This document shows positions 5,241 to 12,164 of a stretch of DNA of 32,000 nt, piece by piece. This DNA is from Alphaproteobacteria bacterium (GTDB lineage: Bacteria > Pseudomonadota > Alphaproteobacteria > Rs-D84): assembly GCA_017475605.1 (NCBI GenBank), contig JAFVFD010000005.1, forward strand, positions 1 to 32,000. The letters run 5' to 3'. The position numbers and the translations under genes were made by a program. Positions within the stretch are counted from its first letter, which is position 1; every line of letters starts with the position of its first letter. A model generated the notes under the pieces. The model saw nothing but the letters and a program-made list of their open reading frames with translations, searched no databases and was not told the DNA's origin.

Positions 5241-5591
5241 TTACGACCCCGTCCAATAACAATCTTCACCACTGGTATAGTAAAACGTACCCTTGGTATC
5301 AGTATAGCTATCGTCCCCGTACATATAGCAAGATTCTTTAAATCTATGTGGAGCAGAGGACATCTGGGCATTACTAATCGTTAAAGACAATGGTTTCGCC
5401 ATACCCCCGCCCCGCTGTGATATAAGGCCCTCGGTCGGACACGCATGACAATAAGAATCTGTTGCGCTTTCCGCATAATATCCACTGTTACAACTGCGCG
5501 TTGTACCGGAAACCGAACATTCCGCAAATGCATTATTTGATGTGTACAACAATAAGAATGTACAAAACACACTTAATTTTAATCTTGCCAT
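5241..5591 (-). CDS. Small exported Cys-rich protein (GCC2/GCC3- or TNFR-like C..GYY..C..CP module)
   Basis: ATG at 5591 with an AAGGGGA SD; the track's TTG start at 5612 is less likely. Signal peptide MARLKLSVFCTFLLLYTSNNAFA. Mature part has 6 Cys, including CNSGYYAESATDSYCHACP. Confidence 0.75.
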   Translation of the reverse strand: MARLKLSVFCTFLLLYTSNNAFAECSVSGTTRSCNSGYYAESATDSYCHACPTEGLISQRGGGMAKPLSLTISNAQMSSAPHRFKESCYMYGDDSYTDTKGTFYYTSGEDCYWTGS

Positions 5592-5650: not shown

Positions 5651-6628
5651 CTAGGTTTGACATTCACCCACCTTATAGCACGTCTGCCCAATCAGCCCAA
5701 AATCCGACCACCCCCAACCTTGTGTACTGGAATTGCATTGACCGGTGGCATATGGGGCAGAACAAGACCCATACACTGATGTAACCTTTACAGTTGTTGT
5801 TCCGTCGCCGGTTGTCGAGGCAGCCCTTGTACATGTATCGCCCGATGCGGTCCACCCAGATGGGCATGGCACACGATAATATGCATCAAAAAGGCAACAA
5901 TACCCCCCAGTCGATGTAGAAACCGAGTTTTCACAATCTGGCTCGGTTCGATATAAACGTTTGGTGCTGGTTGTACTGGTATAGACATCCGACCAATCAA
6001 CAATGGTTATATTTCTACCAACACCAAACTTACAAAACCCCTGGGCATAGGCTGAACATCCTTCGTTGACCCCAGCAATAGGTCCAGAGCTCCCGCTTCT
6101 TTGGCACGTGTAATATGAATATGTATTGGAACAACCATCTACACTAAGGGTAGCAGACGTTTTCGTATAACCGTCACTACATACGGAACATGTACGAACA
6201 CAATATGACCCAAAACACTTATCTTTACCGTATGTTTTACAACCGAGAATAGTTGCATTTGCGGCGGTCTGACACGTAGAACTGCTGTAACTTTTTACGT
6301 TACAAGTTGTACTAGGACCTTCGAGTGTACAATAATGCAACGTTATATTACCGCAATCGGGGTCATTATATGTATATGGCGTAAGCACACCGAGTTCGCA
6401 GATTCCTGCATCAGAAATTGCCCCACCACATGATAAATAACATCTATTACCCCATTTGACAGTACCCCAATTAGAACAATTTGCCCGCCCCCCAGGAAGA
6501 ACATCAAGTTGTGTATCATCAGCATTACAAGACCCGATATAACACACATATGCTTTCGCGGTATTGGTAAAAAATGGTGCCACCGCCAGTATACACCCAA
6601 ACCACAATACCCGTAATATCCGATTCAT
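5651..6628 (-). CDS. Exported, extremely Cys-rich and S/T/G/Y-rich protein of unknown function
   Basis: 325 aa. Signal peptide MNRILRVLWFGCILAVAPFFTNTAKA. 28 Cys in the mature part by hand count. AAGGGGGA SD. A 38-nt gap separates it from the next Cys-rich gene. Confidence 0.85.
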   Translation of the reverse strand: MNRILRVLWFGCILAVAPFFTNTAKAYVCYIGSCNADDTQLDVLPGGRANCSNWGTVKWGNRCYLSCGGAISDAGICELGVLTPYTYNDPDCGNITLHYCTLEGPSTTCNVKSYSSSTCQTAANATILGCKTYGKDKCFGSYCVRTCSVCSDGYTKTSATLSVDGCSNTYSYYTCQRSGSSGPIAGVNEGCSAYAQGFCKFGVGRNITIVDWSDVYTSTTSTKRLYRTEPDCENSVSTSTGGYCCLFDAYYRVPCPSGWTASGDTCTRAASTTGDGTTTVKVTSVYGSCSAPYATGQCNSSTQGWGWSDFGLIGQTCYKVGECQT

Positions 6629-6676
6629 TTTTTCCCCCTTTCCATTGGGCCACCAGCCCAGTATTTCCGCGGTGGT

Positions 6677-6702
6677 CGAACCAAAACGGTGGTTTTGATT
6701 CG
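6677..6702. repeat. Left dyad-symmetric recombination-site-like element (site L)
   Basis: CGAACCAAAACG GT GGTTTTGATTCG. 10 of 12 half-site positions are symmetric about a 2-bp core; equivalently, 9 of 10 arm positions about the 6-bp spacer CGGTGG. 6684-6705 is perfectly reverse-complementary to 6760-6781. Confidence 0.7.
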
Positions 6703-6715
6703 GCCATTTTTGGTG

Positions 6716-6745
6716 TTGACAAAGTCCCGAAAAACCGAATAAAAT
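6716..6745 (+). promoter_or_regulatory. Near-consensus sigma70 promoter inside the inverted-repeat cassette, firing rightward
   Basis: TTGACA (6716-6721), 18-bp spacer, TAAAAT (6740-6745). It lies wholly within the 54 bp between the perfect repeat arms. Confidence 0.6.
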
Positions 6746-6762
6746 AGAATCAATTAAGTGGC

Positions 6763-6788
6763 CGAATCAAAACCACCGTTTAAAATCG
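6763..6788. repeat. Right dyad-symmetric recombination-site-like element (site R), an inverted copy of site L
   Basis: CGAATCAAAACC AC CGTTTAAAATCG. The core AC is the reverse complement of the left core GT, so the two sites are in inverted orientation. Confidence 0.7.
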
Positions 6789-6858
6789 GCTGCCTTTATT
6801 TTTAATAACACACTGTATTTACGGTATAATTCGCCGATTTTTTGTTTTTAATTTTTTG
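6782..6858 (+). terminator. Candidate terminator-like stem plus T-run downstream of the cassette promoter
   Basis: AAAATCGGC (6782-6790) pairs with GCCGATTTT (6833-6841), followed by TTGTTTTTAATTTTTTG. The 42-nt loop is long, so efficiency is uncertain. Confidence 0.3.
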
Positions 6859-6957
6859 TCATTGCGAACGAAGTGAAGCAATCTAGCCACCGACGACCTG
6901 TTAATATGTACACAAGGTTGCATACACATAACATTGGTTCCACGATGTGAAAAATGC

Positions 6958-6986
6958 TTGAATATTCCGACAAGCGCATATAAAAT
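6958..6986 (+). promoter_or_regulatory. Candidate sigma70 promoter proximal to leuS
   Basis: TTGAAT (6958-6963), 17-bp spacer, TAAAAT (6981-6986), about 35 nt upstream of ATG 7021. Confidence 0.55.
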
Positions 6987-7020
6987 CACATTCAGACTTA
7001 ATAAACATGGGGTAAATAAT

Positions 7021-9423
7021 ATGGCCGACGACATAAAGAAAATAATGGAACGCGAAGAAAAATGGCAACGCCGTTGGCGCGATGCGCGCGCATTTGTACC
7101 AAAAAACGACGGTTCAAAACCACGTTTTTATAATCTGGTGGAATTTCCGTTTTTGTCGGGCGCGGGGTTACATGCGGGCCATATGCTGATATATACAGGC
7201 ATGGACGTTATGTCGCGTTTTCGTCGCCATTTGGGATATGATGTTTTATTCCCCATGGGGTTTGATGCGATGGGTATTACCGCCGAACACTATGCGACAA
7301 AAATTGGTCGGCACCCTGCTGAAATCGCCACCGAATTAAAGAAATCTTATTCCGCCGTTATTGACCAGGCCGGTTGGTCGGTTGATCCGGAAACCCGCGT
7401 GGCCAGTTCGGACCCAGAATATATCAAATGGACACAGTGGATGTTCATTCAATTCTTTAATGCGGGATTGGCATATAAATCTGAATTGCCAATGAATTGG
7501 TGCCCCAATTGTAAAACAACATTAACAAACGAAGAATTGGAAGATGGCAAATGTAATCGTTGCCATGGCGACGTCGAAAAAAAATTGAAATTACAATGGA
7601 ATCTGCGCCTGTCGGACTATGCGGAAAAATTGTTGGACGGCTTACAAGATGTCGATTTTGATGAACGCATCAAAAAAGACGAAATCAATATGATTGGTAA
7701 ATCCACCGGGGCCGAGGTTGATTTTCGTGTTGGCGACGACATTATGACCATCTATACAACACGTGTTGATACGGTATTTGGTGTAACATTCTGTGTTATT
7801 GCGCCGGAACACGCATTGGTGCGCAAATGGTTGGATGCGGGCCTGATTAAGAACAAGGACGCGGTTGAAAGTTATATCAAGGCGTCTGCGGCAAAATCTG
7901 AAATTGAAAGAACAGATGCTTCACGTGAAAAGACCGGTGTTCAATTGATGGGAATAAACGCAATCAACCCATTTACCAATCAAGAAACCCCGGTGTTCGT
8001 TTCTGACTATGTATTGGCCGATTATGGTTTCGGGGCAATTATGGCGGTGCCAGCGCACGATTCACGCGATTGGGCATTTGCCAAAAAATTTGGCCTGCCG
8101 ATAATACCGGTGCTGGCGGGGGGCGATGTTGAAACCGCCGCATGGGAAGAAAACGGTGAACACATCAATTCTGGCTTCATGAACGGCATGAACAAAGAAG
8201 ATGCCATCGCGGCGGCGATTAAATACGGTTCTGAACATGGTTTCGCGCGTGCCGCGGTTAAATATAAATTAAAAGACTGGGGCTTTTCGCGCCAGATGTA
8301 TTGGGGCGAACCGATACCATTGGTCCATTGTGATAAATGCGGTTGGGTACCGGTGTCAGACGACGAATTGCCGGTTTTACAGCCATATATGACAGACTAT
8401 AAACCAACTGACAATGGGGAAAGCCCCCTGGCCCGCGCGACAGATTGGGTGAATACCACATGTCCAAAGTGTGGCGCACCGGCAAAACGCGAAACAGATA
8501 CTATGCCGGGTTGGGCGGGTTCATCGTGGTATTACCTGCGGTATTTGGACCCGAAAAACGATAAAGAGTTTTGTTCGCGCGAACAGATGGAAAACTGGAT
8601 GCCGGTGAATCACTATAACGGTGGCCACGAACACAATACGCGCCATTTGATTTATTCGCGATTCTGGCATCATGCGTTGTATGATTTGGGGCTGGTTAAC
8701 ACACCGGAACCATACGCAAAACGCACCGCCCAGGGACTGGTATTGGGTAATGACGGTTTCAAGATGTCTAAATCGCGTGGCAATGGATTCCAGGTGGCCG
8801 ACCTGCTTAACGAAGTTGGGGCGGACGTTGCGCGTGTAACGATTTTGTCGCTGGGGCCATGGAAAAACAACACCATGTGGAACGAAGGTGCCCTGGCGGG
8901 TGTTCAAAGATTCCTTAAACGCGTAGAAGGTTTTTCTGATAATTTAACCGACGATGCACTTACCCCGGACCAAGAACGACTGGTTAATAAACTTATCGCC
9001 GATGTTACGGACAGAATTACCAATATGGGATTTAATACGGCCATTTCCGCGATGATGGAATATCTGAATGCGTTTCCGGGCGGTAAAATGCCCCGCACCG
9101 CATACGTGGCATTGATTCAGATGCTGAACCCGTTTGCGCCACACCTTACCGAAGAAATGTGGGAAAAATTGGGTAATTCAAATATGCTGGTATTTGAACC
9201 ATGGCCGACATTTGACGAAACGAAGTTGGCGAAAACAGATATGACCATTGTTGTATCAATTAATGGTAAACGCGCAAATGATTTTGTTGTGCCGGTGGGG
9301 GCATCGGAATCTGAAATAACCGCGGCGGCTAAAACCGCGGCGGGCGCGAAACTGGACGGTGCAACGATAATTAAAACGATTGTGGTACCGAACAAGTTAG
9401 TGAATTTCGTGATAAAGAAATAA
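7021..9423 (+). CDS. leuS: Leucine--tRNA ligase
   Basis: 800 aa from MADDIKKIMEREEKWQRRW. HIGH-type motif GLHAGHM, KMSKS motif FKMSKSRGN, and a Cys cluster CPNCKTTL...CNRCHG. The track ORF from 6934 is an upstream in-frame extension. Confidence 0.95.
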   Translation: MADDIKKIMEREEKWQRRWRDARAFVPKNDGSKPRFYNLVEFPFLSGAGLHAGHMLIYTGMDVMSRFRRHLGYDVLFPMGFDAMGITAEHYATKIGRHPAEIATELKKSYSAVIDQAGWSVDPETRVASSDPEYIKWTQWMFIQFFNAGLAYKSELPMNWCPNCKTTLTNEELEDGKCNRCHGDVEKKLKLQWNLRLSDYAEKLLDGLQDVDFDERIKKDEINMIGKSTGAEVDFRVGDDIMTIYTTRVDTVFGVTFCVIAPEHALVRKWLDAGLIKNKDAVESYIKASAAKSEIERTDASREKTGVQLMGINAINPFTNQETPVFVSDYVLADYGFGAIMAVPAHDSRDWAFAKKFGLPIIPVLAGGDVETAAWEENGEHINSGFMNGMNKEDAIAAAIKYGSEHGFARAAVKYKLKDWGFSRQMYWGEPIPLVHCDKCGWVPVSDDELPVLQPYMTDYKPTDNGESPLARATDWVNTTCPKCGAPAKRETDTMPGWAGSSWYYLRYLDPKNDKEFCSREQMENWMPVNHYNGGHEHNTRHLIYSRFWHHALYDLGLVNTPEPYAKRTAQGLVLGNDGFKMSKSRGNGFQVADLLNEVGADVARVTILSLGPWKNNTMWNEGALAGVQRFLKRVEGFSDNLTDDALTPDQERLVNKLIADVTDRITNMGFNTAISAMMEYLNAFPGGKMPRTAYVALIQMLNPFAPHLTEEMWEKLGNSNMLVFEPWPTFDETKLAKTDMTIVVSINGKRANDFVVPVGASESEITAAAKTAAGAKLDGATIIKTIVVPNKLVNFVIKK

Positions 9424-9525: not shown

Positions 9526-11403
9526 TTGAAACCACTGAATAAGATTTTTGCCGGAATTATGTGTGGCGTGCTGGGGATAAACAGCGCGATGGCTGCCGAT
9601 AATTGTACAAATATCGCATACAGAAATGCCCACCCGGAACGTTGTAAATATGCCGACGCGGCATCCAACGACAATACTTGGTTATGGTTGGGTGGTGGTG
9701 CGGCTGTCGCGGGTGGTATTGCCGCATTGGTTGGCATGGCATCTGGTGGCGGGTCGGGTTCATCGTCAAATGGGAACGGGGTTTCGACATCATCAACACA
9801 ATATGTACGCACAATCAACCCGACAATCATTACCCGCAACGGTGTCGCCCCAGACTTTTCAGGCACCGATTTATCGTCAATCACAAATACACGCGATTAT
9901 AAACGGAACGCATCCGCATATGATGATATACAATTGGCCTATTCCATCGCACGCGGATATACCGGGACCGGTTCCACAATTGCGGTTTTTGATACAGAAA
10001 TCACATCGCAATATTCACATGGGGCCGCGGTTTCACAGATTGCCAACGGACCAATCGCACCAAACGCAGTGGTTCACCACTATGCGATTGCGTCTGATAC
10101 CAAGACTTTTAAATCATATAATCAAATCGGTGCCATAATTAACGATGCCACACACGCAAATATCCACAACAATTCCTGGAATGTGTCATCGGTTTCCGCA
10201 GATATGATTAGTTCCCGTACACAATTTGCCGCACAAACCAGTCAAACTTTTGTGAATGCCTTATCAAATGCCGCGCAAAATGATGCTGTTTTAGTGTGGG
10301 CGGCCGGAAACGACGGCAACAGTCAAAGCGGTATGTTATCCGCCGCACCGCGCGTTATACCGGAATTAAACGGGCATTTCGTTAACGTCGTTGCGTGGGA
10401 TTCCCAAACACGCGCATTGGCGGAATACAGCAACGCGTGTGGTGTTACAAAAGATTATTGTATAACCGCACCGGGTGCAATTCAAACATCAAACGGATAC
10501 ACACATGTTGGGACATCTTTTGCCGCCCCGGTTGTATCCGCCGCCATCGCCGTTATCCGCGAAGCATGGCCATACCTGAACGCGACACAAATTACAGATA
10601 TTTTGTTTGAAACCGCCGCTGATTTGGGTGATGCCGGGGTTGATGAAATCTATGGCCATGGAATGCTTGATTTAGAAAACGCGACCCGTCCAGTTGGCGA
10701 ATTATCTATCGCGGTCGGCGACAATATGACACAACCGTTACAGACGGCCCAGGTGCCCGCAAACATCGCACGCAACATAGAATCTGCGAATCCAACAATG
10801 GCATTTTTTGATGCGTATGGGCGCGCATATGAAACACGTGTCGCAGATAACATTTCCGCACGCAATCGTGGGTTGGGATTTGAACGTCTGCGCGGCGATG
10901 ATGCCCGCATGAAAATAAATATGGGTTCGTTGGAAATGGGTTTCTATCACAGCGACATGTTAAATGCCACTGGATTCCTGCAAACAGACGAAGACACAAC
11001 TGTAAGTTATGTTGCCTTGAATCATTCGTTTAATTTGGGTAACTTTGAATTATTTACGCGTTCCCAGTTTGGCACCACACACCCGATTGCATCATCTGAA
11101 TCAATCGTGTCTGAATATTCCAACCTTTATACCGCATCGGCGATGGTTGGGTTACGTGGCGACAAATGGTCTTTTTCGGTTGGTGTACCGGAAACAATCG
11201 TTCGTGGCGATATGAATTTACATACGGCAATCGGTCGTCGTAATGACGGTGCGATTATTTATCACGATTATAAAATCGGAATGGCAACCACACCGTCAAT
11301 TGAATATACAGCAAACTATGGCTTTTTAACGGCCGGGTTTGTTGATAATCCATATGGCGACGACGAATTTTACGTATTTGCCAAAACAAAACTTAGTTTC
11401 TAA
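9526..11403 (+). CDS. Subtilase (peptidase S8) autotransporter
   Basis: 625 aa, TTG start with a strong SD. Signal peptide ...GINSAMA. Gly/Ser linker. Catalytic motifs AVFDTEI (Asp), SHGAAVSQIA (His), NNSWN (Asn) and GTSFAAPVVSAAIAVI (Ser). The C-terminal ~250 aa have alternating beta-strand character and end ...FAKTKLSF (terminal Phe). Confidence 0.88.
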   Translation: MKPLNKIFAGIMCGVLGINSAMAADNCTNIAYRNAHPERCKYADAASNDNTWLWLGGGAAVAGGIAALVGMASGGGSGSSSNGNGVSTSSTQYVRTINPTIITRNGVAPDFSGTDLSSITNTRDYKRNASAYDDIQLAYSIARGYTGTGSTIAVFDTEITSQYSHGAAVSQIANGPIAPNAVVHHYAIASDTKTFKSYNQIGAIINDATHANIHNNSWNVSSVSADMISSRTQFAAQTSQTFVNALSNAAQNDAVLVWAAGNDGNSQSGMLSAAPRVIPELNGHFVNVVAWDSQTRALAEYSNACGVTKDYCITAPGAIQTSNGYTHVGTSFAAPVVSAAIAVIREAWPYLNATQITDILFETAADLGDAGVDEIYGHGMLDLENATRPVGELSIAVGDNMTQPLQTAQVPANIARNIESANPTMAFFDAYGRAYETRVADNISARNRGLGFERLRGDDARMKINMGSLEMGFYHSDMLNATGFLQTDEDTTVSYVALNHSFNLGNFELFTRSQFGTTHPIASSESIVSEYSNLYTASAMVGLRGDKWSFSVGVPETIVRGDMNLHTAIGRRNDGAIIYHDYKIGMATTPSIEYTANYGFLTAGFVDNPYGDDEFYVFAKTKLSF

Positions 11404-12028
11404 GACCATCATTAGCTTTTATCACCACATCTGGTTTTAATTCGTTAACTAAAACAAATTTGTGTAATGTATCACGATGTACGTGTAACCGACGAGCCAG
11501 CACACTCTGTTTGACCCCCGATTCCAATTTTTCAGCAATGTATTTTTCGTGTCCGATCAATTTACACGCAGGTGTTGAATCAACTGGCCGTCCCAACTGT
11601 TTGCCTTCGGATTTGATACGCGCCAGGGCTTCCTTGGTTCGTTGCGATATAAGGTTGCGTTCAATTTCCGCCGACAACCCAAACGCAAAGGCCAAAACCT
11701 TGCTGGTAATATCGGCCCCTAACCTGTAATTATCCTTGATTGTCCATATTTTAGCCCCAACATCCATACAGTGATGCAGAATACTCATAATCTGTAACAA
11801 ATTACGCCCCAAACGCGATAATTCAGATGCAATTATCATATCATCTTTGCCGATATGTTTAAGCAATCGTCCCAGCTTTCGCTTGTCCAGGGCCTTGGTC
11901 GCAGAAATTGTTTCTTCTATCCAACGTTCAACCCGCAGATTATTTTTTTCACAAAAGTTGTTAATTTCAAACCGTTGATTTTCGGTTGTTTGGTGGTCTG
12001 TCGACACACGTATATAGCCATATATCAT
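11393..12028 (-). CDS. Small serine recombinase (resolvase / Hin-type invertase family)
   Basis: 211 aa from MIYGYIRVSTDHQ (catalytic Ser in the RVS motif), then LSRLGRN, AEIERNLISQRTKEAL, GKQLGRP and a C-terminal HTH (SVLARRLHVHRDTLHKF). AAGGAG SD. The ORF-track N-terminal extension to 12094 is rejected. The 3' end overlaps the autotransporter 3' end by 11 nt. Confidence 0.9.
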   Translation of the reverse strand: MIYGYIRVSTDHQTTENQRFEINNFCEKNNLRVERWIEETISATKALDKRKLGRLLKHIGKDDMIIASELSRLGRNLLQIMSILHHCMDVGAKIWTIKDNYRLGADITSKVLAFAFGLSAEIERNLISQRTKEALARIKSEGKQLGRPVDSTPACKLIGHEKYIAEKLESGVKQSVLARRLHVHRDTLHKFVLVNELKPDVVIKANDGLRN

Positions 12029-12135
12029 TTTATACTCCTTTGTTTCTTGGCAAATACATGAGTCTTTTTCTCCGAATCCAACCCTTCGAAACAATTGTAC
12101 GACGACCCACCAACTTCTTTTTTGATAAATAAAAC

Positions 12136-12164
12136 TTGTGTTTTAGCGATTTGCTTTCTATGAT
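12136..12164 (+). promoter_or_regulatory. Weak candidate promoter for the A2M-pbpC operon
   Basis: TTGTGT (12136-12141), 17-bp spacer, TATGAT (12159-12164). Confidence 0.3.

Follow-up and report, generated by a model that had tools for sequence, protein, structure and literature searches.

A candidate miniature invertible promoter upstream of Cys-rich secreted-protein genes in gut Alphaproteobacteria of the Rs-D84 lineage

We consider it likely that positions 6676-6789 of the window, the 32,000-nucleotide stretch of DNA analysed in this study, form a miniature invertible promoter (inverton) which switches an operon for Cys-rich secreted proteins by means of the recombinase encoded at 11393-12028. 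An invertible promoter had been suggested in a preliminary description of this DNA made from its letters, and the interpretation is now supported by elements of the same kind in relatives, where they occur in both orientations, the window's own copy having been seen in the off orientation only. Every statement of that description about the sequence was borne out when rechecked. The host belongs to Candidatus Enterousia/Rs-D84, uncultured gut Alphaproteobacteria with genomes smaller than about 1 Mb (PMC12306168), and Enterousia, from the uncultured order Rs-D84, is without a TCA cycle and a respiratory chain (PMC12306168). In the literature searched, we found no report linking Rs-D84 or Enterousia with inversion. 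To our knowledge, almost nothing is known about the interaction of Rs-D84 with the host, phages or other cells.

Results

Anatomy of the 112-bp element

The element is intergenic: on one side is a minus-strand gene starting at 6628, which encodes a Cys-rich protein of 325 aa, and on the other is the plus-strand gene leuS (7021-9423). Its parts are as follows.

6676-6703, no strand: candidate recombination site L, gene side, TCGAACCAAAAC-GGTG-GTTTTGATTCGG, with 12-bp imperfect dyad half-sites and a 4-bp centre
6704-6761, plus strand: putative invertible loop with predicted promoter, -35 TTGACA at 6716-6721 and -10 TAAAAT at 6740-6745, now rightward, which would be off
6762-6789, no strand: candidate recombination site R, off side, CCGAATCAAAAC-CACC-GTTTAAAATCGG, inverted partner of site L

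Inverted repeats bracketing a short segment are expected of an inverton, and a repeat search placed the arms at 6684-6709 and 6756-6781 (26 nt, 96% complementary, 46 nt apart). Within them, 22 bp (6684-6705 against 6760-6781) are perfectly complementary, which confirms that site R is an inverted copy of site L. The 18-nt arm core occurs only twice in the 32-kb window even with up to three mismatches allowed, the chance expectation being 0.03. Each site is also a dyad in itself: a recount found 10 of 12 half-site positions symmetric in site L, as expected from its earlier description as near-palindromic, and 9 of 12 in site R. The site centres are 86 bp apart, and the asymmetric cores read GT on the left (6689-6690) and AC on the right (6775-6776), the inverted orientation that had been claimed for them. 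We propose the GT of site L as the crossover dinucleotide, a position that we infer. A purpose-built detector, which required two dyads at 83-88 bp from each other and asymmetric cores that match, returned a single pair in the window (6676-6703/6762-6789) and none in 20 shuffles of the 32 kb. An outer 9-bp stem suggested by RNA folding (6671-6679 with 6785-6793) was rejected as a part of the element; it is broken in the close strain represented by contig L001.

Predicted promoter, off-side terminator-like feature and presumed target operon

The loop carries TTGACA-18-TAAAAT at 6716-6745 on the plus strand, a match to 11 of 12 consensus positions and the best promoter-like site in 6300-7200, in agreement with the near-consensus sigma70-type promoter firing rightward of the preliminary description. 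A close strain has TACAAT instead of TAAAAT as its -10 hexamer. In only one orientation this predicted promoter would serve the gene on one flank, as is expected of an inverton. The promoter scan also bore out two further claims, namely that the Cys-rich gene is without a good minus-strand promoter (no promoter-like site on that strand from 6628 to 7038) and that leuS has a promoter of its own (promoter-like sites present). The genes concerned on the gene side are the following.

5651-6628, minus strand: presumed target gene, Cys-rich protein of 325 aa, signal-like segment at the N terminus, without a Pfam match
5241-5591, minus strand: presumed second operon gene, Cys-rich protein of 116 aa, C-terminal motif DxxG[ST]Fx[FYI]xxxC[YF][YW]

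When the inversion was modelled by reverse-complementing 6689-6776, the -10 hexamer came to lie at 6725-6720 on the minus strand, leaving an 85-nt leader to the ATG at 6628, which matches the distance of about 85 nt estimated earlier. The flipped junction at the window locus would read, for example, TCGAACCAAAACGGTGGTTTTGATTCGGCCACTTAATTG, and the region 6660-6720 would carry ...GATTCGGCCACTTAATTGATTC in the flipped state. In this modelled on-state leader, the site L palindrome would form a hairpin with no U-run behind it. The currently off side has a different make-up.

6758-6803, plus strand: terminator-like feature that off-state transcripts would meet, hairpin of site R (6758-6793) and then TTTATTTTT (6795-6803)

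A simple terminator scan did not call the feature at 6758-6803. A T-run is found on the non-gene-side flank in the window and at L063, L074, L082 and L008, and never on the gene-side flank. Judged from these sequences, the off-side recombination site seems to double as an intrinsic terminator that would silence the parked promoter. In the off state, the promoter would point rightward and its transcript would at once meet the site R hairpin and T-run as a terminator, neither reading usefully into leuS nor serving the Cys-rich operon. In the on state, the promoter would point leftward, and transcripts of the operon for Cys-rich secreted proteins (6628 down to 5241) would begin with an 85-nt leader. 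The arrangement at L015, where two switches face each other over about 500 bp with no gene in between, supports reading the away orientation as nothing more than "off".

The motif DxxG[ST]Fx[FYI]xxxC[YF][YW] is common to proteins adjoining elements at L063, L042, L011 and L008. The 116-aa protein itself was not on record in a look-up. A paralogue of the 325-aa protein, P0122 (53% identical), is preceded by the same leader and arm and marks a second locus in the window species. The unannotated Cys-rich proteins are likely exposed, selected surface or secreted factors.

A family of elements with a common plan

At least eight Enterousia-like (Rs-D84) lineages of gut Alphaproteobacteria have homologous elements, which precede genes for secreted Cys-rich proteins.

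Window species: at least two loci, the second upstream of the paralogue P0122
ODAJ metagenome: L042 and L063
Candidatus Enterousia MAG JAZLAV01: at least eight paralogous loci
Sheep-colon MAG: L008
MAG RACS_032: L011, single site only
Species carrying the recombinases P0048, P0059 and P0042: three lineages

The arm sequence has many copies in the Candidatus Enterousia MAG and one each in two other gut Alphaproteobacteria MAGs. Several dispersed invertons sharing one site are typical of the Mpi system, and JAZLAV01 has at least eight loci with the window's arm sequence. In a metagenome scan with the 18-mer arm, 33 of the 35 loci were chance matches in unrelated genes, with L042 and L063 the only relevant ones. 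At each element, one flank leads over about 50-60 nt and a G-rich ribosome-binding site to a Cys-rich gene with a signal-like N terminus, and the encoded proteins are of small or medium size.

Six lineages aligned promoter-forward share a common plan. It begins with an outer half-site, the centre, an inner half-site and 11 nt; continues with TTGACA or TTGAAA, 18 nt, TAAAAT, TACAAT or TAAACT and about 14 nt; and ends with an inner half-site, the reverse-complemented centre and an outer half-site. The site centre varies by lineage between GGTG and GGAG, with GGAC in the P0059 species. The central dinucleotide is likewise GT or GA by lineage, and partner sites agree in all copies except L015a. 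In every lineage measured, the centres lie about 85-86 bp apart, and this conserved spacing answers the earlier caveat that 86 bp is much shorter than the invertible segments characterised so far. Most pairs of lineages share only 31-53% identity in the loop, and the -35 and -10 hexamers and their positions are conserved in the six aligned lineages. Selection therefore acts on sites, promoter and geometry, which are conserved, and not on the remainder of the loop, which has diverged.

Multi-copy palindromic units can also be mobile repeats of the MITE/REP type, or the unit could be a structured RNA, for instance a small RNA or the leader of leuS. That the unit is multi-copy in a related MAG and that several contigs end in it would suit a mobile repeat, and its folding as a long hairpin would suit a structured RNA. 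However, the flanks are conserved from copy to copy, and the gene that follows always encodes a secreted Cys-rich protein. We encountered no solo insertion and no empty site, and where the element is absent the neighbouring secreted-protein gene is absent too, so the MITE/REP identity was rejected. The possibility raised in the preliminary description that the unit might turn out to be such an element is thus answered by a unit that is multi-copy but not mobile, its copies having flanks and a downstream gene family in common. As to a structured RNA, a transcript from the internal promoter would hold only one arm. At the gathering score, Rfam recognised only a tRNA-Leu elsewhere in the window, and an Rfam structured RNA was likewise rejected; at permissive thresholds, the element drew only sub-threshold plant microRNA-precursor models on both strands, a generic response to a hairpin. 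Neither threshold gave a T-box or another leuS leader. We regard a mobile repeat or a structured RNA as highly improbable.

Both orientations among relatives

In the species carrying P0048, the same locus with identical flanks is represented by six independent assemblies, in four of which the loop points towards a gene for a 145-aa secreted protein (L071, L074, L075 and L077) and in two of which it is exactly reverse-complemented and points away (L073 and L076). Among the paralogous loci of JAZLAV01 with near-identical flanks, L005 is flipped relative to L014, L015a, L015b and L020. The ODAJ metagenome has the same cassette in both directions, towards the Cys-rich gene at L063 and away at L042. 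A single orientation was seen in two species: all five complete copies in the P0059 species point away from the secreted-protein gene, and all three copies in the P0042 species point towards it. This suggests that switching may be rare or may have been lost at some loci.

A SNP in the outer half of the site (L071 and L073) keeps with the flank in both states and the first loop bases travel with the loop, which places the exchange point within about 19 bp around the site centre. The two states are unlikely to stem from an orientation error of the assembler, since the arms (23-26 bp) are shorter than the final k-mers given in some contig names, e.g., k141.

Inversion could in principle proceed without a recombinase, with the arms forming a hairpin or cruciform that leads to template switching during replication. 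Minute hairpin-associated inversions are known from chloroplast non-coding DNA, and the 26-bp arms fold as a very stable hairpin (z-score -7.8). Such a mechanism has no need of the dyad symmetry within each site, which includes the outer half. At L008 and L082, the two sites match each other poorly as repeats, and still each dyad and the matching central dinucleotide have been kept. The spacing fixed at about 85-86 bp and the linkage to a dedicated invertase also speak against template switching, which we think very unlikely to be the cause of the inversions.

The copy in the window

The window locus is in the off state, pointing away from the Cys-rich gene, in all three assemblies that contain it (the window; L001, on the same contig as L068; and L002, on the same contig as L066). 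Look-ups of the recombinase, LeuS and the 325-aa protein retrieved no further copy of the locus, and none flipped. In a fourth assembly, contig L003 begins at the position equivalent to window 6759, which in the modelled flip is the last base common to both orientations, and at its other end the 44.8-kb L003 scaffold stops within 3 nt of the arm of the paralogous switch. In sample ERZ28654170/SAMN15829995, scaffold_2393 is broken at both switches. A break of this kind is what a mixed-orientation assembly bubble would produce, but it is not proof of one.

The window copy might instead be a frozen relic fixed in the off state, within a family that inverted formerly or still does so at other loci. 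It would then work only as a fixed promoter plus terminator, or else as a palindrome upstream of leuS to which a protein binds. One orientation in three independent assemblies is what a relic would show, and apparently fixed copies exist elsewhere, L011 having a single site and L015a mismatched central dinucleotides. By contrast, neither site of the window copy is damaged and their GT/AC cores match. The recombinase ORF, too, is intact, with 100% conservation in several samples, the start of L003 falls precisely on the divergence point of the two orientation states, and the Cys-rich operon has no other recognisable promoter. A relic is therefore improbable in our view. Given the intact sites with matching cores and an operon without an alternative promoter, we are fairly confident that the copy in the window still switches.

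The recombinase

The following gene encodes the presumed enzyme.

11393-12028, minus strand: candidate invertase, 211-aa small serine recombinase of the Mpi family, Pfam Resolvase E = 4.5e-32

The protein scores 305.1 bits against NCBIfam NF009949 (master DNA invertase Mpi family, equivalog), for which the cut-off is 272, and NCBI names an identical protein 'master DNA invertase Mpi family'. Among proteins of solved structure, the Gin DNA invertase is its best relative, and a serine in its conserved N-terminal YIRVSTDHQ stretch aligns with the N terminus of Gin. The gene lies 4.6 kb from the element and outside the segment. An element is located 2-6 kb from the recombinase gene in five lineages (the window, L063, and the P0048, P0059 and P0042 species), the orthologues being 91% identical at L063 and 75-77% identical in the other three species. 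JAZLAV01, with at least eight switches, has a 91% identical orthologue and is the sixth lineage with the enzyme; the end of its contig with the recombinase does not fall within an arm. Synteny around the gene is conserved as PBP1C, alpha-2-macroglobulin, recombinase and S8 peptidase. The ORF at 11393-12028 is real, and its earlier nomination as candidate invertase is upheld by its family and its linkage to elements in five lineages, and on the same two grounds this enzyme probably does the flipping.

A real inverton could also be flipped by a tyrosine recombinase, either the XerC-like protein (864-1790) or one encoded elsewhere. The sites can also be read as arms of about 11-12 bp around a CGGTGG spacer, and sites read in this way (4-6 bp spacer) are like the core sites of dif, lox and FRT. 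In addition, the XerC/XerD-like gene at 864-1790 is only 4.9 kb from the element. On the other hand, this XerC-like protein looks like a housekeeping Xer, and no Phage_integrase gene is present within 7-10 kb of the recombinase-linked elements in other lineages. It is the Mpi-family serine recombinase, unlike a tyrosine recombinase, that is linked to elements in five lineages, and the half-site ATCAAAAC resembles the half-sites of Hin and Gin. We consider flipping by a tyrosine recombinase quite improbable.

Discussion

A proposed serine-recombinase mechanism for the switch

For the preferred reading, an invertible promoter flipped by the Mpi-family enzyme, the mechanism may be as follows. Two dimers of the serine recombinase (11393-12028) would bind the two dyad-symmetric 28-bp sites, and the site-bound dimers would then form a synapse, with strand exchange at the asymmetric dinucleotide in the centre (GT left, AC right), which would turn the 86-bp segment round. 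One recombinase probably flips several switches per genome, at least two in the window species and at least eight in the related Enterousia MAG, so that phase variation among the secreted or surface Cys-rich proteins would be combinatorial.

Comparison with known systems

In Bacteroides fragilis, a single serine recombinase, Mpi, turns round no fewer than 13 dispersed regions, seven of which are capsule promoters (PMC4747536, PMC5903667, PMC10403206). The system described here resembles it in that the recombinase passes the NCBI Mpi-family equivalog model, in that one enzyme appears to serve many dispersed switches with the same repeat, and in that short promoter segments precede genes for surface or secreted products in a gut bacterium (PMC4747536, PMC5903667, PMC10403206). 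It differs from the Mpi system in its host, which is an alphaproteobacterium (Rs-D84/Enterousia) and not a member of the Bacteroidota, and in its targets, which are Cys-rich secreted proteins and not polysaccharide operons. The promoter here is sigma-70-like, the sites are full hix-like dyads, and the off-side site appears to double as a terminator. The segment is also only about 85-86 bp from centre to centre; the invertible regions of Bacteroides are roughly twice that size.

A second comparison is with Hin, Gin, Cin and Pin, which are also small serine recombinases, Gin being the closest solved structure to the enzyme here. Like hix and gix, the sites are 26-28 bp long with imperfect 12-bp dyad half-sites rich in A-tracts (ATCAAAAC here, compared with ATCAAAAAC for the hix half-site), and the dyads of about 26 bp, the asymmetric 2-bp core and the inverted orientation are all those of Hin/Gin sites. 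The Hin/Gin/Cin/Pin segments are about 1-4 kb long, with the recombinase gene and a Fis-bound enhancer inside or beside them. In the window, by contrast, the segment measures 86 bp, the recombinase gene is 4.6 kb outside and there is no room for an internal enhancer.

The arrangement of a promoter on a small invertible segment that turns a surface structure on or off is shared with fimS (type 1 fimbriae of E. coli) and the RecV switches of Clostridioides difficile. Those switches use tyrosine recombinases and short non-dyad repeats, and their segments are 150-314 bp long. Small size alone is not unprecedented, as elements in computational inverton catalogues of the PhaseFinder type are mostly shorter than 300 bases (PMC11602134).

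What is known, therefore, is the Mpi-type promoter inverton: the recombinase qualifies as a member of that family and the switch works alike. What is new is the host clade and, as targets, two families of unannotated Cys-rich secreted proteins, together with the very small, nearly invariant size of the element and the apparent dual use of a site as terminator.

Compactness of the element and its meaning

We know of no characterised precedent for an 86-bp segment, which needs a very tight DNA loop if a serine-recombinase synapse is to form. Tentatively, these elements may be unusually compact natural serine-recombinase invertons that work without an enhancer, fixed geometry taking the place of the Fis/enhancer filter, a site serving as the off-state terminator stem and one master invertase attending to at least eight switches in a genome of less than 1 Mb; we hold this to be possible but doubtful. 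The near-invariant spacing of about 85-86 bp would correspond to about eight helical turns, and the spacing, together with an A/T-tract periodicity of about 11 bp, might pre-bend the roughly 60 bp in between and allow direct synapsis of the site-bound dimers. In the loops, AA/TT/AT periodicity peaks near 11-11.5 bp and exceeds that of all 2000 shuffles, a signal confounded by the shared ancestry of the loops and by the promoter elements. If this enhancer-free reading were true, the elements would constitute a minimal combinatorial phase-variation system for Cys-rich surface proteins.

More broadly, a conserved master invertase with many promoter switches ahead of genes for secreted Cys-rich proteins would mean that reduced genomes invest in phase variation. 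The element is a very small self-contained module, in which two 28-bp candidate sites, a predicted promoter and an apparent built-in terminator fit into 128 bp, and it could serve as a compact genetic switch. It also raises the question of how a serine recombinase achieves synapsis over about 60 bp of free DNA at a near-constant spacing of about 85-86 bp.

A small dyad beside the recombinase gene

One further dyad was noted near the recombinase gene.

12130-12145, no strand: small dyad TAAAAC-TTGT-GTTTTA, between the recombinase and alpha-2-macroglobulin genes

It is possibly a recombinase-binding (autoregulatory) site, its membership of the system being uncertain. L063, L071 and L074 have a conserved motif, AAAA[CG]-ACAA-GTTTT, in the corresponding position.

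Recombinase gene and switch geometry

The gene for the candidate invertase, an Mpi-family serine recombinase (window 11393-12028, minus strand), shares ~11 bp (window 11393-11403) with the 3′ end of the S8-peptidase gene, which converges on it, and the same overlap is seen in L063 (from the ODAJ metagenome), L071-L089 and L100. The window and these loci also share one syntenic block consisting of the genes for PBP1C, alpha-2-macroglobulin, the recombinase and the S8 peptidase. The recombinase gene thus belongs to the core genome rather than to a mobile element. Between the recombinase and alpha-2-macroglobulin genes lies a small dyad, TAAAAC-TTGT-GTTTTA (window 12130-12145), whose motif has been kept in the corresponding position of L063, L071 and L074 in spacers that have otherwise diverged. 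The recombinase may bind at this dyad.

The centres of the two inverted sites of the switch lie ~85-86 bp apart in all lineages (window 6676-6789 and the elements in L014, L042, L063, L074, L082 and L008). The loops show an AA/TT/AT periodicity that peaks at ~11-11.5 bp, and the observed value was reached by 0 of 2000 shuffles, a comparison confounded by the promoter elements in the loops and by their common ancestry. Synapsis may require intrinsic bending or a particular helical phasing, which the constant spacing and the loop periodicity would then reflect.

Target proteins

A C-terminal motif, DxxG[ST]Fx[FYI]xxxC[YF][YW], is common to the Cys-rich protein encoded at window 5241-5591 and the element-adjacent Cys-rich proteins in L063, L042, L011 and L008, and may serve in sorting or anchoring. 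A second family of smaller targets (143-145 aa), which we refer to as CWCKM, occurs in the Enterousia MAG JAZLAV01 and in the P0048 species. No protein of either Cys-rich target family had a match in Pfam.

Variant copies and strain variation

The cassette of gene plus switch itself varies among strains, since some strains are without both the switch and its target gene (L087 12440-12740 and L072 15000-15700). In L087 the S8-peptidase gene directly adjoins rpsB, and in L072 the place of switch and target is occupied by other genes.

One paralogous switch in JAZLAV01 (L015, contig JAZLAV010000007.1, locus positions 54 and 139) is centred on GGAG at one of its sites and on GGTG at the other, so its central dinucleotides (GA vs GT) are mismatched. 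Exchange by a serine recombinase would be expected to be blocked at such a pair, and this copy may be locked off. In the MAG RACS_032 (L011 6090-6155) only a single dyad site is present, and a promoter directed at the Cys-rich gene, TTGACA-17-TATATT, follows immediately after the prfB stop codon; this element looks like a locked-on derivative. At another JAZLAV01 locus (L014 4178-4582) an additional CWCKM-family member flanks the switch on its off side, and inversion there might toggle between two paralogues instead of acting as a plain on/off switch.

The loop of a close strain (L002) differs from that of the window at two positions, L002 2722 and 2727 (window 6742 and 6747). The -10 hexamer TAAAAT of the window is TACAAT in L002, which is still a good -10. 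Both ends of scaffold_2393 (sample ERZ28654170, 44.8 kb) fall 1-3 nt from the inner edge of an arm:

End 1: L003 position 1 (window 6759), at the window's switch
End 2: L081 position 1, 78 bp upstream of P0122, a paralogue of the window's 325-aa Cys-rich protein

In the P0048 species, the phase-variable 145-aa gene is followed, ~1 kb downstream, by a reverse-transcriptase gene (Pfam RVT_1) with two small ORFs in front of it:

L071 17158-18869: reverse-transcriptase region
L073 16788-18820: reverse-transcriptase region
L074 16669-18504: reverse-transcriptase region

A diversity-generating retroelement and a group II intron are both candidate identities for this region.
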